The notes under the pieces are model-generated. The model had not been told where the DNA came from and did not search any database. It worked only from the letters and a program-made list of their open reading frames with translations. A stretch of 64,000 bases of DNA from Escherichia coli (GTDB lineage Bacteria > Pseudomonadota > Gammaproteobacteria > Enterobacterales > Enterobacteriaceae), in NCBI RefSeq assembly GCF_024223415.1, contig NZ_CP100500.1. The stretch is one strand, 5' to 3'. The translations under genes were made by a program, and so were the position numbers. The stretch's first letter is position 1; each line of letters opens with the position of its first letter. Of the stretch, positions 2,627 through 58,192 are shown in pieces.

Positions 2627-4027
2627 ATGAGCGTTGTGCCTGTAGCCGACGTACTCCAGGGCCGCGTAGCCGTTGACAGCGAAGTCACCGTACGCGGATG
2701 GGTACGTACCCGCCGAGATTCAAAAGCTGGCATCTCCTTCCTCGCCGTTTATGACGGTTCCTGCTTTGATCCTGTACAGGCTGTCATCAATAATTCTCTG
2801 CCCAATTACAATGAAGACGTCCTGCGTCTGACCACCGGTTGCTCGGTCATTGTGACGGGTAAAGTCGTGGCGTCGCCGGGCCAGGGGCAACAATTTGAAA
2901 TTCAGGCCAGCAAGGTTGAAGTTGCTGGTTGGGTTGAAGATCCAGACACTTACCCGATGGCGGCAAAACGCCACAGCATTGAGTATCTGCGTGAAGTCGC
3001 TCACCTGCGTCCGCGCACAAACCTGATTGGTGCCGTCGCGCGCGTTCGCCATACGCTGGCGCAGGCGCTGCATCGCTTCTTTAACGAGCAGGGATTCTTC
3101 TGGGTTTCAACGCCACTGATTACTGCGTCTGATACCGAAGGGGCTGGCGAAATGTTCCGCGTTTCTACGCTGGATCTGGAAAATCTGCCGCGTAACGATC
3201 AGGGCAAAGTGGATTTCGACAAAGACTTCTTTGGTAAAGAGTCTTTCCTGACCGTATCTGGCCAGTTGAACGGCGAAACCTACGCTTGCGCATTATCCAA
3301 AATTTATACCTTCGGCCCGACTTTCCGTGCTGAAAACTCCAACACCAGCCGTCACCTGGCGGAATTCTGGATGCTGGAGCCGGAAATGGCGTTTGCTAAC
3401 CTGAACGATATCGCAGGTCTGGCTGAAGCCATGCTGAAATATGTCTTCAAAGCGGTTCTCGAAGAACGCGCTGACGACATGAAATTCTTCTCTGAACGCG
3501 TAGATAAAGATGCCGTTTCACGTCTGGAACGCTTCATTGAAGCCGATTTTGCGCAGGTGGATTACACCGACGCAGTGACCATTCTCGAAAACTGCGGCAG
3601 GAAGTTTGAAAACCCGGTTTACTGGGGCGTTGATCTCTCTTCTGAGCATGAGCGTTATCTGGCGGAAGAACACTTTAAAGCACCGGTAGTGGTTAAAAAC
3701 TATCCGAAAGATATTAAAGCGTTCTATATGCGCCTTAACGAAGACGGTAAAACCGTTGCGGCTATGGACGTTCTGGCTCCGGGCATCGGTGAGATCATTG
3801 GTGGCTCCCAGCGTGAAGAACGTCTGGACGTGCTGGACGAGCGTATGCTGGAAATGGGCCTGAATAAAGAAGATTACTGGTGGTATCGCGATCTGCGTCG
3901 CTACGGTACCGTTCCGCATTCAGGTTTCGGTCTTGGTTTTGAACGCCTGATTGCTTACGTAACTGGTGTGCAAAACGTGCGTGATGTGATTCCGTTCCCA
4001 CGTACTCCGCGTAACGCCAGCTTCTAA
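2627..4027 (+). CDS. asnS: Asparaginyl-tRNA synthetase
   Basis: ORF track 2582..4027; start moved to [16 protein letters not shown]... (466 aa); class II aaRS motifs. Confidence 0.95.
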
Positions 4028-4040
4028 TTTAGCGTCTTCA

Positions 4041-4069
4041 AGAGCCAGCACCCGCTGGCTCTTTTTTTA
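4041..4069 (+). terminator. Rho-independent terminator after asnS
   Basis: Hairpin AGAGCCAGCacccGCTGGCTCT followed by T7 run. Confidence 0.75.
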
Positions 4070-4418
4070 TCCTTTCTGTCAAGTTATCTGTTTGTTAAGT
4101 CAAGCAATCTATTTGCAACCCCGCCATAACGATCATCCTGTTACGGAATATTACATTGCAACATTTACGCACAAAAAATAACCCGCATTCTTATTGCGGA
4201 TTAGTTTTTTCTTAGCTAATAGCACAATTTTCATACTATTTTTTGGCATTCTGGATGTCTGAAAGAGGATTTTGGGCCAGGTCGATAAAGTTTCCATCAG
4301 AAACAAAATTTCCGTTTAGTTAATTTAAATATAAGGAAATCATATAAATAGATAAAAATTGCTGTAAATATCATCACGCCTCTATGGAAATATGACGGTG
4401 TTCACAAAGTTCCTTAAT

Positions 4419-48993: not shown

Positions 48994-49163
48994 AATGGCT
49001 CACTCAAGCTTGCTCACGATTGATTCCAGTAACAAACCGTATTGTGTAATTATTTCTATAGCAGATCGCTATATAGGCTTGTATACATCGAATAATTTGA
49101 AAATCAAAGAGATAGGTAGATTTTCACTCGAAAGTAGTATTACGTGTAAGTGAGGAGTAATTA

Positions 49164-49177
49164 TTGTTCGGTATCAA
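49164..49177 (-). promoter_or_regulatory. FNR-type half-site pair in dmsA promoter
   Basis: TTGTT-CGGT-ATCAA (consensus TTGAT-N4-ATCAA) ~170 bp upstream of dmsA ATG. Confidence 0.5.
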
Positions 49178-49289
49178 AGGGAGACAAAAAAAGCGCCCGC
49201 AGGAGATTTAACGGTACTTACTCCTCTTGCTGATTTCCTTATTTTTCAATAAGTAAACAAAAACAAGGGGAGCAAATTATCACAAATAA

Positions 49290-50285
49290 TTACTGGTCGA
49301 TGGACAGTTTATGGACACTTTCAGCCAGCGGATTAAAGCTGATCGCATCCTGTAAAAAGTCCGGTGAAAAATGCGCATACGTCATCGTTTGCTGAATCGT
49401 GGCGTGACCCAGGATCCTCTGCAACGTGACGATGTTCCCGCCGTTCATCATGAAATGCGTGGCGAACGTGTGCCGCATGACATGCGTGGCCTGCCCTTTG
49501 GGTAAGTCGGGCTTCACCTCCTGAAGGATCTCCCTGAAACTGAGATAATCAACCTGATATAACAGGCCGGTCCGGCGGGTTTTAATTAACGGCACAACGG
49601 AATCAGCTACAGGAACCGAGCGCGATTTCCCGTTCTTTGTGTTAAAGAACGTCACCCTGTTACCCACGATGTGTTCCCCGCGAAGCGTTGACGCCTCTTT
49701 CCATCTGGCCCCGGTCGAAAGGCACAGAATGGCAATGCGTCGTGCATCACCCTCAAGCCGTTTCAGAAGGCGATCAATCTCGTCATCTGAAAGAAAGGCC
49801 ATTTCTGTATTCTGAACCTTGAGTTTACGTATTCCGCGCACAGGGTTTTCGTTATGATAAACCTCCGCGTCAATTAACAACGAAAACATCGCAGATAAGG
49901 CGCACAGGTCGCGATTGATACTGGACGGCATCAGTCCCGCCTGCAACTTATCCGAGCGATACTCAATCATGAATTTTCGTGTCATCTGGCTGGCGCGCGG
50001 GTCCCCCATTTCACGTATCACCTTCTCCAGTCTGGTTCTGTAGGTATCACCATATGCCTGATTACGACCATCAAGCATCCACCACACCTCAATCAGTTCT
50101 GATAACCGCCGTTGATCGGCGGGCCTTGCCTGCCACGGGTTATTGTGGAAATTCTGAAGAACGTATCTTTCGAATTCCTGCGCCTTTGATTTCAGGGTGA
50201 AAATCTTACGAATCCGCCTTCCTCCCGCCCCCTGAGGCCTTACATCAACCTGATAACGTCCGTCTTTGAGTTGCTTAATCGACAT
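49290..50285 (-). CDS. int: P2-family tyrosine integrase
   Basis: ORF track 49290..50294; likely start MSIKQLKDGRY behind GGAGG; catalytic region HVMRHTFATHFMMNGGNI...ILGHATIQQTMTYAHF resembles P2 Int. Confidence 0.9.
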   Translation of the reverse strand: MSIKQLKDGRYQVDVRPQGAGGRRIRKIFTLKSKAQEFERYVLQNFHNNPWQARPADQRRLSELIEVWWMLDGRNQAYGDTYRTRLEKVIREMGDPRASQMTRKFMIEYRSDKLQAGLMPSSINRDLCALSAMFSLLIDAEVYHNENPVRGIRKLKVQNTEMAFLSDDEIDRLLKRLEGDARRIAILCLSTGARWKEASTLRGEHIVGNRVTFFNTKNGKSRSVPVADSVVPLIKTRRTGLLYQVDYLSFREILQEVKPDLPKGQATHVMRHTFATHFMMNGGNIVTLQRILGHATIQQTMTYAHFSPDFLQDAISFNPLAESVHKLSIDQ

Positions 50286-50354
50286 GATCAGCACCTCCGA
50301 CGGATAAACCTGTTAACCCCTGCTTACTGAACGCCGCCCGTTCAATATACAGCG

Positions 50355-50696
50355 TCAGCCAGCATTGCGGCCTGATTGGGGTGATTTTTGGGTATTGCGG
50401 GTTGAAACCTGATCGTCCTCCGACTGCGTGGAGCCATCAAGAGAGAGAGCCGGGGCGATCTGACCGGCAACAGGTAGCGTCTTATCTTTGATTAACCAGA
50501 ACATATATTTTTCAAACCGATCCACTTGAAGGACGGCCTCAACAATCTTTGCTCTGGCGATCTTTTGCCCTGACTCATAATTCCTGACAGTTGCCAGAGA
50601 TAACCCTGTAATATCAGCAAATTGCTTTTGAGTTAGCCCTTCCGTCTTGCGTATCAAACGCAACTTTTTCGCATAGTCTATTGACAAGATACTCAT
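50355..50696 (-). CDS. C: P2 C-type immunity repressor (HTH)
   Basis: 113 aa; HTH LTQKQFADITGLSLATVRNYESG; C-terminal GQIAPAL...SPQSG resembles my recollection of P2 C. Confidence 0.8.
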   Translation of the reverse strand: MSILSIDYAKKLRLIRKTEGLTQKQFADITGLSLATVRNYESGQKIARAKIVEAVLQVDRFEKYMFWLIKDKTLPVAGQIAPALSLDGSTQSEDDQVSTRNTQKSPQSGRNAG

Positions 50697-50799
50697 TTGG
50701 GGATTAATCTCCTACAAAAGATAACCGTACGGTTATCTTTACAAGTCATCAAAAATCATCAAAAGGCGCAACAAGCGCACCAATGCAAGAGGATAACAA
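50697..50799. promoter_or_regulatory. Divergent Pc/Pe switch region with operator-like repeats
   Basis: Perfect 18-bp palindrome GATAACCGTACGGTTATC (~50720-50737) and tandem 10-bp direct repeats TCATCAAAAA/TCATCAAAAG (~50746-50765) between C and cox-like starts. Confidence 0.6.
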
Positions 50800-51321
50800 A
50801 TGCGGGAGATTATTGCCGACAAAGAGTTATCTGGCGCTCAACCGGTTCAGGATGATGGCGCGGACAATGAATTCATTGAAGCTGCCAACGACAACGAACA
50901 CCTGGAAACCAAAACCAGACCGTCCTACAAAAAGGGCGCAACCCTACGACTGGACGGCCCAGTCGCAGGACTTGTGTCACTGGAAAAAGGGGCTGCCTAT
51001 CTGGGGGTAACAAAATCTGCGCTACGCGCCGCCATTCAGCGCGGGCAGATGCCGGGTCACAAAACGCGCTCAAATCCCGAAGATGAAAAGTCAGACGGTA
51101 CATGGTGGTTTAACGCCAAAGCCTGGGACGAACTAGCCGACGAACTACTGGAGTGCGAACCGCCAGAGTGGCACAACTGGAAAAGCTACTGGACGTACGA
51201 CCGCAAGAAAAGAAAGTTTTCACCGGCAAACAAGGAGGACTGCCAGACCGTTAAAGGTAAGCAGGTTTACTCCCCCAGAGTTTCAAAACTGGAGCAACTC
51301 AAAAACAACCAGCCCGGCTAA
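50800..51321 (+). CDS. cox: Cox-like excisionase/regulator with N-terminal extension
   Basis: 173 aa, RBS AGAGGA; central HTH LEKGAAYLGVTKSALRAAIQRGQMP and GTWWFNAKAWDELADELLE resemble P2 Cox, which is ~91 aa. Confidence 0.65.
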   Translation: MREIIADKELSGAQPVQDDGADNEFIEAANDNEHLETKTRPSYKKGATLRLDGPVAGLVSLEKGAAYLGVTKSALRAAIQRGQMPGHKTRSNPEDEKSDGTWWFNAKAWDELADELLECEPPEWHNWKSYWTYDRKKRKFSPANKEDCQTVKGKQVYSPRVSKLEQLKNNQPG

Positions 51322-51329
51322 ACACGAAA

Positions 51330-51536
51330 ATGACCAGCAATATCATCAGCGCCATTCTGACACTTGTTTTTATTGAGATAGGCGTAATAGCGATCTATTT
51401 GTTTCGTAAGTTAACGGGACATGAAGAACGCTTTATTGAACTCAGCATTGAATATATCGCCGCTTATACCAAAGGACTTTTCCCGGCAGCTATTGGGGCG
51501 ATGTTTATAGCGTTTGTTATCTGGTTTATCGGGTGA
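51330..51536 (+). CDS. Small hypothetical membrane protein (2 predicted TM)
   Basis: 68 aa, hydrophobic segments ISAILTLVFIEIGVIAIYLF and AAIGAMFIAFVIWFIG. Confidence 0.45.
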   Translation: MTSNIISAILTLVFIEIGVIAIYLFRKLTGHEERFIELSIEYIAAYTKGLFPAAIGAMFIAFVIWFIG

Positions 51537-51787
51537 GAAACCTGATAAACCACAACTACTGCAATGAGGGTAATTATGTGTGGCATGGACAAATTGGACC
51601 TTATGTTAATTGTAATACTATCAATTAACTTCGGTTACCTCTTAAGCGGCGTAATTCTCATGTGCGGAGGCAAACGAAAATGAACCAGCAGTCCGCAAAA
51701 CGTGAACACAATGCGATGCGATTTAATCGCAAATATTTTGAGTTCGCCGCTATGCCGGAATAATTAAATCTGTACAGAGTCTTTAAC

Positions 51788-52126
51788 ATGAAACAGCAAC
51801 GTAATTCACGCTTTCGTAATGGTGCTGAACGTCACGCTAACCGTTTCGCTACCAGTGCATCACGTAGTAACTCCCGCTACAGCCTGAGCGAGACACACGC
51901 AACACCGGGCGGTCATGCTGTAAAACAGACTGGTCAACACACCTGGCTGATTGAGCAGGCCGGACTCGTGATCCACAGATGCCACCGCAATCCGTTTACC
52001 GGAAACCGCATTTTTGCACTGAGCAGCGGCGACAATCAGTTCGGACAGGATTTCACACTGCACGAAGCCTTGCGAACTGCCGACCGCTTAATCGAGGGGC
52101 GCAGCTTTCAGCATACCGACTACTAA
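51788..52126 (+). CDS. Hypothetical early-operon protein
   Basis: 112 aa ORF co-oriented with early operon. Confidence 0.5.
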   Translation: MKQQRNSRFRNGAERHANRFATSASRSNSRYSLSETHATPGGHAVKQTGQHTWLIEQAGLVIHRCHRNPFTGNRIFALSSGDNQFGQDFTLHEALRTADRLIEGRSFQHTDY

Positions 52127-52164
52127 GGCAAAAGGAGTCTTAATAAGACAGAAGAGGCAGCAAG

Positions 52165-52407
52165 ATGAAAAGAGCCTATAAAGAACTCATTAACCACGCG
52201 CTTCAGAATTACCATTACGGACTTACAAGCCGTGGCACTAACGGTGACGCTGTTTCACTTGCAGCACTGACTACAGCAATCAAGGGCCTGACCTGTTGCG
52301 CCTTTGGTTCCGGAGATAATGAAGCTCTGACGGAATTACAGGCCATTAATAAAGACCTGTCTGAAGGAAACGTAATAACCCCCTTTGTAATTCAGGAGGA
52401 AGCATGA
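52165..52407 (+). CDS. Hypothetical early-operon protein
   Basis: 80 aa, RBS-like GGCAGCAAG upstream. Confidence 0.5.
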   Translation: MKRAYKELINHALQNYHYGLTSRGTNGDAVSLAALTTAIKGLTCCAFGSGDNEALTELQAINKDLSEGNVITPFVIQEEA

Positions 52408-52529
52408 GCGTATTTATGTCATGGTTAATTCTTATCCTTGCCATTATTTGCGCTGTGGGGATTATGCGGGTAATTAACAGCATTAACACCATTGAATCGT
52501 TATTTACTGGCGATAAGCGCCGTAAATAA
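52404..52529 (+). CDS. Small hydrophobic peptide (41 aa, 1 TM), hypothetical
   Basis: ATGA overlap with preceding stop, strong RBS AGGAGG; MSVFMSWLILILAIICAVGIMRVINSINTIESLFTGDKRRK; below ORF-track size cutoff. Confidence 0.4.
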   Translation: MSVFMSWLILILAIICAVGIMRVINSINTIESLFTGDKRRK

Positions 52530-52609
52530 ACAGGCGTTTAACACCAGAAACAACCAGAAACATCCGCTCACGCGGAGGGGTTGACCCGCTCAAAAAGGAG
52601 AAATCAGGA

Positions 52610-52903
52610 ATGCTTAATAATAAAAAAAACCGAATCATTGATAACAGTGAACAGGTCAACAAAATAATCGAAGGCACAAACAAATTAATTAAGAAAAAAA
52701 ACAAACTAAGCCGTGAATTAATGGAACATCCGGAAGAAATATTATTAGCCATGATGCACCAGACAGAAGCGATAGCCATCGCCCTTGCCGTGCAGGCGCT
52801 TTCTGAGTTCCGGGAAGAAAACATCAGGCTGGCTCAGGAGCTGAAAAACCTCAGACGTCAGCTTCAGAGCACTGAGGCTGGCACGTCATCACGAATGCAC
52901 TGA
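52610..52903 (+). CDS. Hypothetical protein, Lys-rich N-terminus then helical C-terminus
   Basis: 97 aa, RBS AAAGGAG; 5' half markedly AT-rich compared with neighbours. Confidence 0.55.
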   Translation: MLNNKKNRIIDNSEQVNKIIEGTNKLIKKKNKLSRELMEHPEEILLAMMHQTEAIAIALAVQALSEFREENIRLAQELKNLRRQLQSTEAGTSSRMH

Positions 52904-52913
52904 GGGCCACACC

Positions 52914-53123
52914 ATGACTGCAATTCTGAGAAGACGCAATAAAACGCTTTTTACCGATACATCCGGGATGGAATACGAAGTGGAAAGCAGTGTCATAGCC
53001 ACCACCACCCGATGCCCGGCAGGTGACGAACTGATTTACGTCCACCTGACGGACGGGTCACAGATAACCGTCCTGACAGAGTCATGGCGCGAACTCGAGA
53101 TAATAAGCGAGGTAAGAACATGA
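52914..53123 (+). CDS. Hypothetical early-operon protein
   Basis: 69 aa. Confidence 0.45.
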   Translation: MTAILRRRNKTLFTDTSGMEYEVESSVIATTTRCPAGDELIYVHLTDGSQITVLTESWRELEIISEVRT

Positions 53124-53332
53124 GCAGCAAACACGATACCAACGCACGCAGACCAGGCAAAGAGGCGCGTCACCATATCGCCGTAATGCGCAACCTGCTT
53201 ATGAGTGAAATCGACGATTTTGTGGCAGGCCTGGGGCAACCGGGCGAACCAGCAACACCAGGCCAGATACACAGGGAATTACGCCGCCGCGTGGAAAACG
53301 TCGTGGATTACGTCATAAACCCGAACGACTGA
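53120..53332 (+). CDS. Hypothetical early-operon protein
   Basis: ORF track 53084..53332; preferred start MSSKHDTNARRPGK with ATGA overlap and GAGG RBS. Confidence 0.45.
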   Translation: MSSKHDTNARRPGKEARHHIAVMRNLLMSEIDDFVAGLGQPGEPATPGQIHRELRRRVENVVDYVINPND

Positions 53333-53371
53333 CGGGAACATGGCGAGCGTCAGATGACACACGCAGGGCAC

Positions 53372-53854
53372 TTATCGGGACAAACCGATCGTAATCGCAG
53401 CCATCATCTTTTCAGCGAAAGAGAGAGATTCACGATGACTGATATTCAGAGACATACAGGCTTTGTTGTACGCCACATTTTCCATGCATTCCAGGACAGG
53501 AGAGTCATGCATCTCAAGCTCTGGAAGGCGTGCCAGCAGAGCTTCCGTACTGAGGAGGGCGCTTTTGGTAATCAACTCATTGTAGCGATGGGCATGCTCA
53601 CTCGCCGCCTGCGCACGTTGCCCGAAACGACATATGAAATTACAGGCTCCGAGAACCACCACCACTGCCCCCAGCACCCAGCCGAAATGCCAGCCGGCTA
53701 CGATGAACGCACCCGCCGCAAGGATCAAAATGTTGATGATCGCATCAAGGCGACGATTGAACACCGCCGCGATGCGCTCCAGCCAGTAGCTGTACCAGAG
53801 ACGGAACATGACCTCATCCCGTTCTCTCGATTTTTTACGTTGGTTGTTTTGCAT
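53372..53854 (-). CDS. Membrane protein encoded antisense to the early operon (candidate moron)
   Basis: 160 aa, RBS GAGGG; two clear TM helices (AIINILILAAGAFIVAGW, GWVLGAVVVVLGACNFI); the overlapping + strand ORF 53354..53989 is low-complexity. Confidence 0.55.
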   Translation of the reverse strand: MQNNQRKKSRERDEVMFRLWYSYWLERIAAVFNRRLDAIINILILAAGAFIVAGWHFGWVLGAVVVVLGACNFICRFGQRAQAASEHAHRYNELITKSALLSTEALLARLPELEMHDSPVLECMENVAYNKACMSLNISHRESLSFAEKMMAAITIGLSR

Positions 53855-54088
53855 GGTGTTTTATCCCTCATCGTCATCGCTCTGCCCCTAATCAGCGCAG
53901 AGTGCAGGGTAACCTGGCTCGTGGAATTTTTGCAGCCAGACATCTTTACCCCCGGGCGTGTTGAACAAAGTGTCCGCCAGATCCACTGAACGGCGGATTC
54001 ATCAATGCTAACACGCCCTTCTTTTCCGGTTGAAGGCGAAAAAACCGGACCATTACCCCGACACAAAACAGAACAACGGAGAACAACT

Positions 54089-54643
54089 ATGCCCGCACTT
54101 AAACCTATGGGTGTATCAGGTGTACCACCGAAGCATGTCAGAGCCTGGACACAACAGGAAGATGCTCTACTGGTCGGTTTATACCCCTCCCACACCGTAC
54201 CAGAACTGACAAAACACTTTCAGAGAACCGGGCCAGCAATACGAAGCCGCATCCGTCTTTTGCTCTCTCAGGGGGTTATCCACACCAAACAACCCCCCCT
54301 GAATACAAAAGAACTCAACACGCTCATCAGGAATCGCCACACAAAAACCATCCGGGAACTCGCGAATGAACTGGGGCGCTCGACATCCACGGTGGGACTG
54401 AACCTGAGAAAAAGAGGGTACCGGTTCAGGAAATACGGGGAACTCCACCACAGAGCCAGATACAGCGATCACCTGGTGGAGTTGGTAACTGAACTGCGCG
54501 ATGAACAGGGGATGACATTCAGCGAAATCAGAAAGTACATCCGGGACACGACCGGGATATCCCTTAAAAGATGGGTCCTCGCCCGGCTTTACGCACGATA
54601 TACCGCCGCTGACACCGTGCTTTGCGAACTGCTACCGGACTGA
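54089..54643 (+). CDS. Putative DNA-binding protein with three HTH-like repeats
   Basis: ORF track 54005..54643; start moved to MPALKPMGVSG behind GGAGAA; repeated helix-turn-helix-like segments (..TVPELTKHFQRTGPAIRSRIRLL.., ..TIRELANELGRSTSTVGLNLRKRG.., ..TFSEIRKYIRDTTGISLKRW..). Confidence 0.55.
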   Translation: MPALKPMGVSGVPPKHVRAWTQQEDALLVGLYPSHTVPELTKHFQRTGPAIRSRIRLLLSQGVIHTKQPPLNTKELNTLIRNRHTKTIRELANELGRSTSTVGLNLRKRGYRFRKYGELHHRARYSDHLVELVTELRDEQGMTFSEIRKYIRDTTGISLKRWVLARLYARYTAADTVLCELLPD

Positions 54644-54966
54644 GTAACCACTATGCACACACAAAAAAACCGCTTGCCATGCCGCAATCAGTCAGGTTAC
54701 ATTTCCGCTGCACCTCATAAAACGGGTGCCGGGATTGCAACCCCCGCTGACAAACGAAGCGCACAACCGCGCCAGCGGTTTTTTTGTGCGTACCGTATCG
54801 CCACGTCTTTTTCGCACCAGAATTATGGTGGGGCGTACGGGGCCGACTTCGGTCGGGCCGGTTTCTTCGTTTGCCGGTGGTTGCAACCCTGTACGTCTCG
54901 CCACCCAGAATTGCAACCTCTGGATGGTGAGTATCCAAAAACTCACAAACGAAGAGGCCAAACACC

Positions 54967-55194
54967 ATGGCAAACCGCAAACAACAGCGCGCATACGCTG
55001 CGCGTCGTCACATCCAGACTGAAATCAACCGCAGACTTTCCCGCGCATTCCGCGTCGCGCATATCATGCACATCAATATGCTGCATGAGCGCAGCCACGC
55101 ACTGTCAAACATGTATTCCGCCGCTGTATTCAGCTACCTGGCGGATGACCTGCGCAAGCTGCAGGACCTCATTAACCAGCACTACCACCACTAA
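54967..55194 (+). CDS. Hypothetical early-operon protein
   Basis: 75 aa, basic, RBS GAAGAGG. Confidence 0.5.
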   Translation: MANRKQQRAYAARRHIQTEINRRLSRAFRVAHIMHINMLHERSHALSNMYSAAVFSYLADDLRKLQDLINQHYHH

Positions 55195-55262
55195 TCAACA
55201 TCCCGGAGCCATCCCGCCCCCGTACGCGGGAGGCTTCCGCACGTCCGTTTCCGGAGGTTCTC

Positions 55263-55676
55263 ATGAAGAGCGTTAAGGGACTTTCAGATATTCAGGATTT
55301 TTTTAACTGGATGTGGGCGGTGGATCCACGCCTCGCTTCCCGTCTCAATGACCTGCATGACTATTACCGCCGCGCCTGTAAACAGGCCGCCAGCAGCGCC
55401 ACCACATACGGGAATTTTTCCTTCACCGTTGATGACCGTTACCGCGTGGATGTCAGAGACCAGAACCACAGCATGGTGCTGGGCCTGTTCCACATCAACG
55501 GGTGCGACAGCAGCGTTATCAGCTGGTCATCGTCAGAAATGGTGCTCGTTCTGGAAATGACCACCCACAGCGTGGTCGTGAAAGGGATTAAAACAGCAGA
55601 AGACTTTATCGCTGAATACCAGCGCCTTCTTGTGCTGTACCGGGCTGCATTTGAGAAGGCAACAGCAGGGGAGTAA
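55263..55676 (+). CDS. Hypothetical protein immediately upstream of A
   Basis: 137 aa, RBS GGAGG. Confidence 0.55.
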   Translation: MKSVKGLSDIQDFFNWMWAVDPRLASRLNDLHDYYRRACKQAASSATTYGNFSFTVDDRYRVDVRDQNHSMVLGLFHINGCDSSVISWSSSEMVLVLEMTTHSVVVKGIKTAEDFIAEYQRLLVLYRAAFEKATAGE

Positions 55677-55681
55677 GCGGA

Positions 55682-58192
55682 ATGAGCCATCACCACACGC
55701 ACCTGGCGTACCCGTGGAACGCCCCGCTGCCGGTTATTGATCCTGAGACATTCGGCAGAGCATTACCGCAGAAGCCAACCGCATTACAACGGGCAATCCG
55801 TGACTACCTCACCGAAGACATTCGCACTGAGGCCCGGCTGGATGAAGAAACCGTGGCCTTCCTGACAACCACGGACAAAGGTAAGCAAATTAATTCACAC
55901 CTTCACCGGGACGAAGAGCGGCAGATAAGGCTGGATAAGCTGGCACGACACAGACGCGAAAATCCGCCAACGGCGGTATCGGAGGCGATAGCCGAACTTC
56001 GCACCCTGCCCTCGTTTCTTGCCAGTGTGTTGATCCGTGATCTGGCACGACTGAACCGGAAACAGCAAAGTGCCCGCAGTGAAGGTGTAAAAAACAACAG
56101 CGCATACGTGGCCGATAATTTCGTTCGCCGTGGACTGCGTGCGCGCCTGAAACGTATTGAAAGGGTTAACGACCGCTTTGCAACGCCGGCATTCAAAACC
56201 ACCGTCGTGCGCCATCGCCTTGAAGAACTGCTCACACTGCCGCAACTCACCCGTGACGAAATCCAGCGCATCGCCACACTGACAGCCCAGGCATTCGCCG
56301 CAGAATTTGAACGCATATGTGATGAAGTTCTTGAACGGACAGGCAAGGATAATGACAGCCCGGTTATCTGGCTGCTGGCCTACCAGAAGGTGGCACGCAC
56401 AGCCTTAATTCTGGGCGTGGTCCCGCCATACTGGCCGGAACTCGAAATCAGGCACAACCGACGCACACCGCCGGACCCTGAACGGGTTCCGGGTGCGGTA
56501 CTGCGCATCACCTGCGCGACCTGGTGGAACAACCAGTTACGCCACGTCGCCGATCTCTGGCGGGAGGAGTTACTGCGCGCCGCCGGCAGAGTGTCACGTA
56601 AACAATCCCCCTATATCAGCCATGAGTCACTACTGGAGTTCCGCGAGAAGCGCCAGCGCACCCGTGACTTTCTCAAAAGCTGGGATATTGAAAACGAAGA
56701 CGGCGAGCGCCTGAGTCTGGAGGACGTGTACTGGGCTGGCCTGGGTAATCCACGCAACCGCCGCAATGAAATGATGGTCTGCGTCAGAGGGATGGAGATG
56801 GTGGCCGAATTACGGGCTGACGTCGCATTCTTCATCACAGTAACCACCCCTTCCCGCTTTCACAGCGTGAACGAGAACGGCAGCCTGAACCCGAAATACA
56901 ACGGTGCCACAGTACGAGATGCCAGTGATTATCTGGTTTACGACTTCTTCGCAGCCGTAAGAAAAAAAATAAAAAAAGAGGGGCTGGGCTGGTACGGCGT
57001 GCGAACCGCTGAGCCACACCATGACGGCACGCCACACTGGCATATGCTGGTATTCACTTCCCCGGAGAACGCAGAGCGCATCATCGAAATTATGCGCGAA
57101 GCAGCAATTAAATCAGATCGCCACGAACTGGGGGACGATATTTCACCGCGCTTTAAATGCGAGAAGATAGACCCGGAAAAAGGCACACCGGCAAGCTATA
57201 TCGCAACCTATATCGGTAAGAACCTGGACGCCAGCGCTTTCCACAACAATGATCCGAAAACCGGAAAACCTTACGTTGATGAGGAATCCGGGAAAACCAT
57301 GGCGGAAACCGTGGAGAACGCCATTGCCTGGGCAAGCCTTCACCGCATCCGTCAGTTCCAGTTTTTCGGCATTCCGCCCCGCCAGGTATGGCGTGAACTC
57401 CGCCGCCTTGCAAGCCAGATGGAGCGCAACCCGGCATCACCGAAGCACCTCGATCATGACGATATTGACGCCATTATGGCTGCCGCAGATGTGGGATGTT
57501 TTGCCACCTACATCATGAAACAGGGTGGTGTGCTCATTCCGCGCAACCAGTATCTGGTCCGCACCGCATACGAAACCGCAGACGAAGCCAACGACTACGG
57601 TGAATTCCCTCAACGTATCTACGGAATCTGCGCCCCGTCGCTCGGAGAGCGGTACACCATATGCACCCATCCGGACGAGTGGAAACTGGTTAAAAAAGAA
57701 ACAACACCAGACAACCGCACGGGCGAGGGTTTTGACCTTCAGGGCGACCCCGTCGCCCCTTGGACTCGTGGCAATAACTGTCCCCGGGATGAAAAAACAG
57801 ACAATCACGGACCAGAAAACAGGCAGGACCCCGGACGACTGACGCTTCCCGAAGAGAACCTGGAAAGCTGGCTGAATACGTTAAGCAGGGGCGATCGGAG
57901 AAAACTGCGTAATCAGATTAAAAATCAGCCGTCGGGCGCAAAAACCGGACAAAACGACACCACACCGGCATCTGACACCCCTGTAAGGGTGGGGATTGTC
58001 GTGCCTGCGGATACCGCGACGGACACGCAAATCGCCCGCGAACTTGATGCGCTGGGTGTGCAGTTGCCTGACGCGGCCATCATCTCCGTGCGTAACGGTG
58101 CCCGTGTGCGTCTGGATAACGGGGGAACAGCGTACTGGGATGAGTCAGCCCGTCACATCATCACAGAGCAGCCAGTGGAGGCGGGAGCATGA
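55682..58192 (+). CDS. A: P2 gpA-like rolling-circle replication initiator
   Basis: 836 aa; HUH-type motif TPHWHMLVF and paired tyrosines YIATYIGKN; larger than P2 A (~761 aa as I recall). Confidence 0.9.
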   Translation: MSHHHTHLAYPWNAPLPVIDPETFGRALPQKPTALQRAIRDYLTEDIRTEARLDEETVAFLTTTDKGKQINSHLHRDEERQIRLDKLARHRRENPPTAVSEAIAELRTLPSFLASVLIRDLARLNRKQQSARSEGVKNNSAYVADNFVRRGLRARLKRIERVNDRFATPAFKTTVVRHRLEELLTLPQLTRDEIQRIATLTAQAFAAEFERICDEVLERTGKDNDSPVIWLLAYQKVARTALILGVVPPYWPELEIRHNRRTPPDPERVPGAVLRITCATWWNNQLRHVADLWREELLRAAGRVSRKQSPYISHESLLEFREKRQRTRDFLKSWDIENEDGERLSLEDVYWAGLGNPRNRRNEMMVCVRGMEMVAELRADVAFFITVTTPSRFHSVNENGSLNPKYNGATVRDASDYLVYDFFAAVRKKIKKEGLGWYGVRTAEPHHDGTPHWHMLVFTSPENAERIIEIMREAAIKSDRHELGDDISPRFKCEKIDPEKGTPASYIATYIGKNLDASAFHNNDPKTGKPYVDEESGKTMAETVENAIAWASLHRIRQFQFFGIPPRQVWRELRRLASQMERNPASPKHLDHDDIDAIMAAADVGCFATYIMKQGGVLIPRNQYLVRTAYETADEANDYGEFPQRIYGICAPSLGERYTICTHPDEWKLVKKETTPDNRTGEGFDLQGDPVAPWTRGNNCPRDEKTDNHGPENRQDPGRLTLPEENLESWLNTLSRGDRRKLRNQIKNQPSGAKTGQNDTTPASDTPVRVGIVVPADTATDTQIARELDALGVQLPDAAIISVRNGARVRLDNGGTAYWDESARHIITEQPVEAGA

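Follow-up and report, generated by a model that had tools for sequence, protein, structure and literature searches.

Small ORFs in the early operon of a P88-like prophage

The 64,000-nucleotide stretch of Escherichia coli DNA analyzed here (the window) contains, at positions 51330 to 52529, part of the C-repressed early (Pe-type) operon of a P88-like prophage (Xuanwuvirus, Peduoviridae, P2 family). In this operon, int, the C repressor gene, and cox are followed by a region with four small ORFs, all four on the coding strand, which are referred to here as p68, m35, m27, and p41. The genes are closely packed, in the order cox, an 8-nt gap, p68, m35, an ATGA overlap, m27, DUF4761, DUF4754, a further ATGA overlap, and p41.

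50800..51321, plus strand: long (173-aa) Cox-family protein, first gene of the early operon (Pfam Phage_Cox, E = 1.5e-08)
51330..51536, plus strand: p68, 68-aa inner-membrane protein with two transmembrane (TM) segments (phrog_14475; WP_000203253.1, PGAP)
51539..51665, plus strand: AT-rich insertion of ~127 nt (38% GC), delimited by alignment of the interval with relatives; carries m35
51576..51683, plus strand: m35, 35-aa hydrophobic single-TM mini-ORF (MCGMDKLDLMLIVILSINFGYLLSGVILMCGGKRK), Shine-Dalgarno (SD) sequence GAGGG; its stop overlaps the m27 ATG (ATGA)
51680..51763, plus strand: m27, 27-aa basic mini-ORF, SD GGAGG at 51666 to 51670; overlaps the m35 stop by ATGA
51788..52126, plus strand: DUF4761 protein, 112 aa (Pfam PF15958, E = 2.4e-58)
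52165..52407, plus strand: DUF4754 protein, 80 aa (Pfam PF15946, E = 1.7e-10)
52404..52529, plus strand: p41, 41-aa single-TM protein (WP_024211217.1), TM at about residues 3 to 21, then an amphipathic basic tail

The original prediction had placed several very small membrane-protein genes in a phage early region and had pointed to signals for translational coupling. Both parts held, the region being the Pe-type early operon of a temperate P2-family prophage and the ATGA overlaps and SD sequences being real. All of the peptides had also been described as hydrophobic and as falling below annotation cutoffs. The first description fits p68, p41, and m35 but not m27, the product of which is basic and hydrophilic (GRAVY, −1.29; net charge, +2); the second fits m35 and m27 in PGAP annotation but not p68 and p41, the families of which are already catalogued (as RefSeq hypothetical proteins and, for p41, also as a P88 "membrane protein"). 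Early-region DNA of this prophage lineage matched 1025 of 5426 complete E. coli genomes (about a fifth).

The cox product matched phrog_23196 (E = 1.6e-92) and is named "Cox family DNA-binding protein" by PGAP. Over all six frames of the window, only four ATG ORFs of 25 to 70 aa combined a TM-like segment with an SD, two of them being m35 (35 aa) and p41 (41 aa). Promoter-like sites across the region occurred at chance level. Terminator-like sites were nominally enriched (9 found, 4.4 expected), those on the plus strand within 51330 to 52529 being weak. Rfam had no match within 51330 to 52529 and, over 49000 to 56000, matched only isrK, C4, and STnc130, all outside the small-ORF interval; neither the insertion nor the gap after p41 folded more stably as RNA than shuffled sequences did. 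Other, unrelated small TM ORFs occupy the early operon of relatives, such as P88 gp11 (67 aa, two TM segments) and a 29-aa TM peptide encoded directly after cox at locus L090. A hydrophobic small ORF was looked for in the P2 early operon and was absent, and such proteins are therefore dispensable to the P2-type life cycle. The small membrane-protein genes found here are an ordinary feature of temperate phages rather than a new kind of system.

p68 and p41 are genuine genes

The predicted 68-aa two-TM ORF was found at exactly 51330 to 51536, with two TM-like segments by hydropathy (best 19-residue Kyte-Doolittle mean, 2.48; residues 50 to 68, 2.26). It starts 8 nt past the cox TAA without an SD (anti-SD duplex, −1.7 kcal/mol). 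TM1 (about residues 3 to 25) carries the invariant E16 and is followed by a conserved amphipathic loop helix and TM2 (about residues 49 to 67), and the AF2 model has three helices (pLDDT, 71). p68 matched the phrog_14475 profile from end to end (E = 2.2e-40; residues 1 to 68 on positions 1 to 68 of 68), the function of this family being given as "unknown." Among homologues (26 at full length in the alignment), the length was almost always 68 aa, with 63 to 100% identity and conserved loop residues. Their hosts are Escherichia species, Shigella, and Salmonella, and a large protein search with p68 returned only Enterobacteriaceae homologues, at least 63% identical. Variable sites numbered 25, 15, and 42 at the three codon positions (P = 0.001), pN/pS was 0.36, and the named frame was the only one open in all variants. 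p68 was present in 331 of 5426 E. coli genomes (about 6%) and in 34 of 83 loci. SCU-115 has a frameshifted copy, L068 a copy disrupted by an IS, and most relatives have none. The slot after cox is empty in P88 and holds other genes in vB_EcoM-569R5 and L090; some of the other accessory genes that occupy this slot are in the opposite orientation. p68 is a dispensable accessory cassette in a variable slot just after cox.

The predicted 41-aa single-TM ORF at 52404 to 52529 was likewise present, with one TM-like segment (best 19-residue mean, 2.78), with AGGAGG at 52394 to 52399 (anti-SD duplex, −10.3 kcal/mol), and with its ATG at 52404 overlapping the DUF4754 stop (TGA, 52405 to 52407). This ATGA overlap was retained, with the ORF intact, in 86 of 87 loci (82 of 83 plus L087 to L090). 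Identity to the window was 49 to 80% for p41 versus 29 to 57% for DUF4754; four loci keep p41 though their DUF4754 is only 33 to 57% identical, and with a query joining the 3' end of DUF4754 to p41, blastn covered only the p41 part in 34 E. coli genomes. p41 belongs to the core of the P88-like early operon, and its sequence is more conserved than that of DUF4754. pN/pS was 0.31 in frame versus 0.97 and 1.5 off frame, stops interrupted all other plus-strand frames, and variable sites numbered 18, 10, and 29 by codon position (P = 0.008). In an alignment of 20 variants, M1, S6, W7, L10, A17, and G19 were invariant and C16, I20, M21, R22, K28, I30, E31, and F34 were nearly so. By the positive-inside rule, p41 would be oriented with its N terminus out and its C terminus in.

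A large protein search with p41 returned only close E. coli variants, and tblastn of p41 against P88 gp07 gave an E value of 4e-9. This P88 "membrane protein" is a 37-aa form of p41, 54% identical and with the same ATGA overlap with DUF4754. p41, for which neither Pfam nor PHROGs has a model, is of the P88 gp07 type both in sequence (37 to 45 aa, an N-terminal TM, and S6-W7…A17-x-G19…R22…K28-x-I30-E31) and in position (directly after DUF4754, with ATGA on its stop). The window has the rarer 41-aa allele, with a …LFTGDKRRK tail, and its DUF4754 is only about 33% identical to the P88 type. In P88_4B11, the same operon positions are held by gp41 (p68, 97% identical), gp42 (m35), gp43 (a 35-aa form of m27, which is frameshifted in the window instead), and gp47 (p41). 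p68 and p41 are thus real genes for small inner-membrane proteins: they are under purifying selection, with a pN/pS of about 0.3 that is confined to the named frame, and they stay intact in relatives down to about 50 to 60% identity.

m35 and m27 between p68 and DUF4761

Two further mini-ORFs had been predicted near 51576 to 51762, each behind a GGAGG. Both exist (51576 to 51683 and 51680 to 51763), and a GGAGG precedes m27 (anti-SD duplex, −9.5 kcal/mol) but not m35, which has GAGGG at 51566 to 51570 (−6.1 kcal/mol). m35 has one TM-like segment (best 19-residue mean, 2.26) and a C-terminal KRK, and an alternative ATG at 51564 gives a 39-aa form. In relatives without the insertion, the next start codon lies 12 nt after the p68 stop; m35 lies in a recent insertion. 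Both mini-ORFs are annotated in NC_049391, as gp42 (m35) and gp43 (m27).

The m27 allele of the window is a frameshifted minority form that stops 24 nt before the DUF4761 ATG, the majority form being a 35-aa ORF that ends in TAAcATG at the DUF4761 start. The m27-type SD and start were identical at 29 of 32 nt to the DUF4761 start of L049 and L067, loci in which m27 is absent; m27 arose by repeat of the DUF4761 start region (SD and first codons). In the present arrangement DUF4761 lacks its own SD (the anti-SD duplex reaching only −2.4 kcal/mol). m27 is probably a coupling or leader ORF. Translation of m27 and m35 would feed ribosomes to the SD-less DUF4761 start and would cover the gap of about 250 nt against polarity; m27, and possibly m35, would then matter mainly through being translated, and the peptides themselves may be irrelevant. 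The coupling role of m27 is weakened because the window allele stops short of the DUF4761 ATG and because its pN/pS (0.36 in frame versus 1.1 to 1.3 off frame, over 22 codons and few lineages) hints at constraint on the peptide, albeit in a small sample.

That m35 and m27 encode no functional peptides at all, being by-products of the insertion and of the start-region repeat, has a substantial chance of being correct, somewhat short of even; their frames would be kept open, if at all, only since translation of the gap prevents Rho-dependent polarity and feeds DUF4761. In line with this, m35 was found only in copies at least 94% identical (large protein search and loci), the few variants being amino acid changes; it is absent from lineages that retain p68 and DUF4761, and PGAP annotates it in none of the 234 of 5426 E. 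coli genomes that have the segment. m27 is frameshifted at its C terminus in the window, forms an in-frame N-terminal extension of DUF4761 in L062, L076, and L066, and is missing from L049 and L067, and an AT-rich insertion would naturally yield hydrophobic residues. On the other hand, when the 127-nt insertion was shuffled, an ATG-initiated ORF with 35 codons or more that ended at the ATGA arose in only 2% of trials and one with a TM-like segment in 0.1% (a post hoc test), an SD stands at proper spacing before each mini-ORF, and the pN/pS of m27 departs from its off-frame values. A coding status for m35 is plausible, and we treat it as a putative gene; an unlikely further reading is that m35 is a hydrophobic gene of very recent origin, only just inserted into a translational relay.

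Searches for function and comparison with known systems

Searches of the four peptides and their neighbors against Pfam, PHROGs, NCBIfam, and PADLOC returned only DUF4761, DUF4754, Cox, and phrog_14475, with no functional annotation for the small ORFs. Foldseek searches of PDB and BFVD with the AF2 models of DUF4754 and p68 had no match at E ≤ 0.001, only generic helical bundles or hairpins at E ≥ 0.7, and a PDB sequence search gave nothing below an E value of 0.06. Pairwise comparison of p68, m35, and p41 with each other and with 186 Fil, 186 Dhr, P2 Orf78, P88 gp11, and the 29-aa peptide of L090 gave nothing significant, Smith-Waterman scores against Fil and Dhr being no better than those of shuffles (P = 0.37 to 0.93). 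In the literature, we found no papers on DUF4754, on DUF4761, or on the function of Xuanwuvirus early genes.

DUF4754 scored 41.5 bits, above the Pfam gathering cutoff of 27, and its AF2 model has three helices (pLDDT, 89.7), a predicted soluble three-helix bundle. A large protein search with it returned only four small clusters and two long repeat proteins. A likeness of the window DUF4754 to the PG_binding_1 repeats of P0071 was dropped: Pfam reports no PG_binding_1 in DUF4754, the E value arises from summing over repeats, and the motif is, by eye, apparently absent from other DUF4754 alleles.

The small peptides had been proposed to act on host division or envelope functions. The searches did not support this directly, no family, fold, or sequence similarity linking them to any characterized protein, 186 Fil and Dhr included; for p68 and p41, such a role is a reasonable analogy. 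Phage 186, of the P2 family, carries fil (75 aa, a division inhibitor, with the record annotation "overexpression blocks cell division") and dhr (66 aa, a host replication inhibitor) as small nonessential early-operon genes, after apl and cII and ahead of the replication genes, a position comparable to that of p68 after cox. Fil and Dhr differ from p68 and p41 in that they share no sequence similarity with them and neither is a predicted integral membrane protein (Fil reaching a 19-residue hydropathy of 1.26 at best). AcrZ, CydX, and Blr are single-TM bacterial regulators of 30 to 50 aa that generally work by binding larger membrane complexes. p41 resembles them in its N-terminal TM helix with a small-residue face and its short cytoplasmic tail; unlike them, it is phage encoded and coupled to a gene for a soluble partner, with no sequence relationship established. 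Gp11 of the temperate Staphylococcus aureus phage PhiNM1 is a small early membrane protein that blocks division by binding MurG and DivIC (PMC11237401), a mechanism of the sort proposed in the original prediction. It is like p68 and p41 in size, membrane location, and time of expression only, the host and phage lineage being different.

Weighing of the explanations

By analogy with these systems, the most likely target of p68 and p41 is a process at the host inner membrane, such as division, envelope synthesis, or transport, and both proteins would be made only upon derepression or infection. Translation would pass from ORF to ORF along the tightly packed early operon, and p41 synthesis would keep pace with that of DUF4754, a soluble three-helix protein with which p41 might act at the cytoplasmic face of the inner membrane; alternatively, p41 might use its conserved small-residue face (A17, G19) to act on a target in the host membrane. 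Taken as a whole (an operon relay, genuine p68 and p41, a host-directed role, and a role for m27 and m35 in translation), this is the explanation that we favor, with a confidence slightly above even. A more specific version, in which p41 and DUF4754 form a lineage-specific, translationally coupled module that hits a host inner-membrane machine in early lytic development, we regard as unlikely. In such a module, p41 would be the 37- to 41-aa membrane anchor or effector and DUF4754 its fast-evolving soluble three-helix partner, and an arms race acting on the soluble partner would explain why DUF4754 diverges fast (to about 30% identity) next to a p41 that stays conserved.

Small inner-membrane proteins with one or two TM segments are typical of exclusion functions, and p68, p41, or both might block the DNA entry of competitors in the manner of T4 Imm or HK97 gp15. 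The architecture of both proteins and the variable, cassette-like slot that p68 shares with other accessory genes are consistent with such a superinfection-exclusion or anti-phage role, but we think it improbable: both genes lie within a repressor-controlled operon, neither has its own promoter beyond what chance would give, and p68 lacks an SD, so that both would be silent in a lysogen; tin, a lysogenic-conversion gene of P2, differs in lying on the opposite strand, outside the early operon; PADLOC matched none of them; and p41 is core rather than variable. Class II holins have two TM segments and about 70 aa (range, about 65 to 95 aa), and p68 agrees with them in size and two-TM hairpin. Nevertheless, it is very unlikely to be a holin-like or lysis-timing protein or a membrane-depolarizing toxin, as it is encoded in the early operon, with cox before it and DUF4761 after it, rather than in a late lysis cassette with an endolysin as neighbor, ends inside TM2 (…FVIWFIG) without the charged, hydrophilic tail that holins typically have at the C terminus, carries no lysis annotation in PHROGs, and is missing from most related phages, which must still lyse. 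Known type I toxins resemble m35 in outline, being small, with one TM and a basic C terminus. That m35, with its 35 aa, single TM, and KRK, is such a peptide (of the Ldr, Hok, or TisB kind) under antisense RNA control is extremely unlikely, since there is no promoter-like site on the opposite strand, no Rfam match at m35, and no excess of RNA structure in the insertion on either strand (z = +0.71 and −1.46), and since m35 is ATGA coupled within an operon and not a stand-alone locus, with no copy outside its present context in the 5426 E. coli genomes, a plasmid collection, or a phage collection.

Implications

These findings leave current understanding unchanged, small hydrophobic early genes being expected in temperate phages. 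Their value is modest. p41 is a conserved early gene in a prophage lineage with early-region DNA that matches about a fifth of complete E. coli genomes. If the p41-DUF4754 module were real, it would be a previously undescribed phage host-takeover system. m27 and DUF4761 offer a clean natural case of a gene displaced by an insertion at its start, with a leader ORF left in front of it that may supply it with ribosomes. Should p68 or p41 target the divisome, envelope synthesis, or a transporter, it would be a Gram-negative addition to the few known small membrane inhibitors of phages and would point to a vulnerability of the host.

Results

The four small open reading frames (ORFs) p68, m35, m27 and p41, named by their length in amino acids (aa), lie at the integrase-proximal end (49.3 to 55 kb) of a P2-family Escherichia coli prophage. 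By megablast, the 3.1 kb from 50300 to 53400 matched chicken E. coli chromosomes at 100% identity, and parts of it were found in 1,025 of 5,426 complete E. coli genomes; the only phage records matching it were those of Xuanwuvirus (P88-like, Peduoviridae) and allied phages. According to PGAP and the phage records, cox is followed by a run of small plus-strand genes, then a "derepression protein" and the GpA replication endonuclease. Given the order integrase, repressor, cox, small genes, GpA, the four ORFs sit in the repressor-controlled early operon, the setting that the original prediction had assumed.

Integrase-proximal genes (from PGAP and phage records) and the four small ORFs; SD, Shine-Dalgarno motif; TM, transmembrane
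49290-50294, minus strand, integrase
50355-50696, minus strand, HTH immunity repressor
50800-51321, plus strand, long Cox-family protein
51330-51536, plus strand, p68: 68 aa, two TM-like segments; no SD (-1.7 kcal/mol); start 8 nt past the cox TAA
51576-51683, plus strand, m35: 35 aa, one TM-like segment; SD GAGGG (-6.1 kcal/mol)
51680-51763, plus strand, m27: 27 aa, hydrophilic, basic (GRAVY -1.29); SD GGAGG (-9.5 kcal/mol)
52404-52529, plus strand, p41: 41 aa, one TM-like segment; SD AGGAGG (-10.3 kcal/mol)

Several other features of this region were recorded. Cox (50800-51321, plus strand), at 173 aa, is roughly double the size of its P2 counterpart (91 aa); its Phage_Cox domain spans only residues 56 to 129, flanked by an acidic N-terminal and a basic C-terminal extension. 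Rfam also placed the enterobacterial sRNA STnc130 (49084-49218, plus strand; 125.8 bits, a strong match) between dmsA and int, immediately beyond the integrase end of the prophage. Rfam matches to isrK (54710-54785, plus strand; 61.9 bits) and C4 antisense RNA (54821-54908, plus strand; 79.3 bits) lie immediately upstream of the PGAP "derepression protein" ORF (54967-55194), and we take this arrangement to resemble an antisense-controlled antirepressor unit of the P1 immI/P4 CI-RNA type, here within a P2-like early operon. Amid the plus-strand operon, an opposite-strand ORF of 160 aa (53372-53854, minus strand; PGAP hypothetical protein WP_001180704.1) contains hydrophobic segments and shows a weak, sub-threshold match to the SLATT_1 domain (E = 0.006; 16.5 bits, cut-off 41) and is possibly a moron or a defence gene.

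All four ORFs were present where predicted. The starts of m27 and p41 share an ATGA with the stops of m35 and of the DUF4754 gene, respectively. ORFs joining a TM-like segment with an SD are rare in the 64-kb window, where six frames held only four among ATG ORFs of 25 to 70 aa, m35 and p41 being two of them. Two of the four small ORFs are already catalogued: PGAP annotates p68 (WP_000203253.1) and p41 (WP_024211217.1), and the P88 record names the p41 homolog "membrane protein". PGAP left out m35 and m27 in 234 of 234 segment-carrying genomes; NC_049391 annotates them as gp42 and gp43. The claim that such genes escape annotation thus holds for m35 and m27 and fails for p68 and p41. The two TM-like segments of p68 and the single one of p41, with its AGGAGG and ATGA coupling, agreed with the original prediction, which was largely correct and slipped twice: the GGAGG proposed for both mini-ORFs precedes m27, the m35 motif having been misread, and m27 is not hydrophobic as p68, m35 and p41 are.

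p41 is a real gene and a core gene of the operon. A homolog was present in all 83 loci compared (80 IMG/VR loci fetched with DUF4761 as anchor plus 3 annotated records), and the ATG and ATGA overlap were kept in 82, the remaining locus having an indel at the start. Most homologs have 37 aa (MSIFISWLVLIISVACAIGIMRIIHSVKKIERFFTGE) and share about 55% identity with p41 of the window. An exhaustive HMMER search with DUF4754 yielded only four small-protein clusters (at 50% identity), and every context fetched for them held a 37- or 41-aa TM ORF overlapping the DUF4754 stop by ATGA. Conservation is higher for p41 than for DUF4754 (49 to 80% versus 29 to 57% identity to the window), and blastn with the 3' part of DUF4754 plus p41 often recovered only the p41 part in E. 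coli genomes. In the annotated frame the Nei-Gojobori pN/pS was 0.31, and the two other plus-strand frames gave 0.97 and 1.5; only the annotated frame was open across 36 of 36 distinct sequences, and variable sites numbered 18, 10 and 29 at codon positions 1, 2 and 3 (P = 0.008). Residues S6, W7, L10, A17 and G19 are invariant and are followed by an amphipathic tail with conserved R22 … K28-x-I30-E31 … F34; by the positive-inside rule, the N terminus would face out and the C terminus in.

The DUF4754 allele of the window (52165-52407, plus strand) shares only about 33% identity with the common P88-type allele, the same comparison giving about 82% for the flanking DUF4761 and about 55% for p41; this one gene is thus mosaic or fast-evolving. 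Its product is modelled as a three-helix bundle (pLDDT 89.7), and we took its weak resemblance to the PG_binding_1 repeats in a protein of 714 aa to be spurious. The 80-nt gap 3' of p41 (52530-52609, plus strand) holds a tandem ACCAGAAACA repeat and a hairpin, TCCGCTCACGCGGA, with no T-run after it. Its fold was no more stable than those of shuffled sequences (z = -0.61), and the gap could serve for regulator binding or processing.

p68 is likewise a real gene, and an accessory one, found in 34 of 83 loci and 331 of 5,426 E. coli genomes. It matched phrog_14475 (function unknown) over its full length (E = 2.2e-40). Homologs, most of exactly 68 aa and 63 to 100% identical, occur in E. coli, E. 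albertii, E. fergusonii, E. marmotae, Shigella and Salmonella. pN/pS was 0.36, the annotated frame was the only open one, and variable sites at codon positions 1, 2 and 3 numbered 25, 15 and 42 (P = 0.001). The first TM helix contains an invariant glutamate, E16; the well-conserved loop (K27-L28-T-G … E33-R34-F35 … Y42 … A45-Y46-x-K48-G49) is modelled as a third, amphipathic helix between the two TM helices (AF2, pLDDT 71). That p68 and p41 are both genuine membrane-protein genes we regard as very likely.

The slot after cox is variable among relatives. p68 is frameshifted in strain SCU-115 and disrupted by an IS in locus L068; the slot is empty in P88, holds a 140-aa gene and a reverse 63-aa gene in vB_EcoM-569R5, and holds five other genes in locus L090, including a 29-aa TM peptide (1761-1850) directly behind cox. 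The early operon of P88 (L085) carries an unrelated 67-aa membrane ORF with two TM segments (gp11, 3884-4087). From these unrelated ORFs in relatives it follows that small TM genes recur in the phage lineage.

The interval between p68 and DUF4761 shows four arrangements across loci. L049 and L067 have the p68 stop, 12 nt (GAGGTGCAAAAA) and then the DUF4761 start, MNKQQRNSSQQRFRNG…; in L062, L076 and L066 a 36-codon stretch opens from this SD and these first codons (29 of 32 nt identical) and continues in frame into a second DUF4761 start, MKQQRNS…. In the window's lineage the stretch forms an ORF by itself, of the m27 type. On this comparison, m27 derives from the DUF4761 gene start. Its majority allele has 35 aa and ends in TAAcATG at the DUF4761 start, which in this lineage is without an SD of its own (-2.4 kcal/mol). 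In the window, the ORF is shortened to 27 aa by deletion of 1 nt; this allele, present in at most 14 of 234 genomes, leaves 24 nt between its stop and the downstream DUF4761 ATG. Most economically, m27 would pass ribosomes on to DUF4761; a pN/pS of 0.36, over 22 codons from two or three lineages only, hints at some constraint on the peptide.

About 127 nt (38% GC) are inserted between the stop of p68 and the SD of m27, and m35 lies within them. Every known m35 copy is at least 94% identical, and the copies are therefore too alike for a selection test. In post hoc comparisons, 2% of shuffles of the insertion contained an ORF opening with ATG, running for 35 codons or more and ending at the ATGA, and 0.1% contained a TM-like one. 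The insertion had no excess of RNA structure on either strand, no Rfam match and no antisense promoter. m35 is probably translated, and its product is a candidate functional peptide.

Discussion

Family libraries searched with the small ORFs, a PDB sequence search, Foldseek with the DUF4754 and p68 models and the literature on these genes gave no functional lead, nor did pairwise alignment to Fil and Dhr of phage 186 and to Orf78 of P2. A functional reading of p41 and p68 comes from operon position and membrane architecture: p41, which would be made in step with DUF4754, and p68 would target a host process at the inner membrane early in lytic development, a proposal that we put forward tentatively. 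The small genes follow on from cox in a chain, with no separate promoters beyond the chance level, and should accordingly be made only on derepression or infection, which speaks against a role in lysogenic conversion or exclusion.

The division or envelope function originally proposed is a fair analogy. Phage 186 carries fil, whose overexpression blocks division, and dhr, which inhibits host replication, in its early operon shortly behind the switch genes, and a small early membrane protein of Staphylococcus aureus phage PhiNM1 stops division via MurG and DivIC (PMC11237401). Unlike the P88-like operon, P2 has no hydrophobic product among its early ORFs (orf78-83), and the function is therefore accessory to the basic P2 life cycle. 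Small membrane genes are an ordinary feature of temperate-phage early regions, of which these are uncharacterised members; the coupling of p41 to DUF4754 and the origin of m27 add a small further interest.
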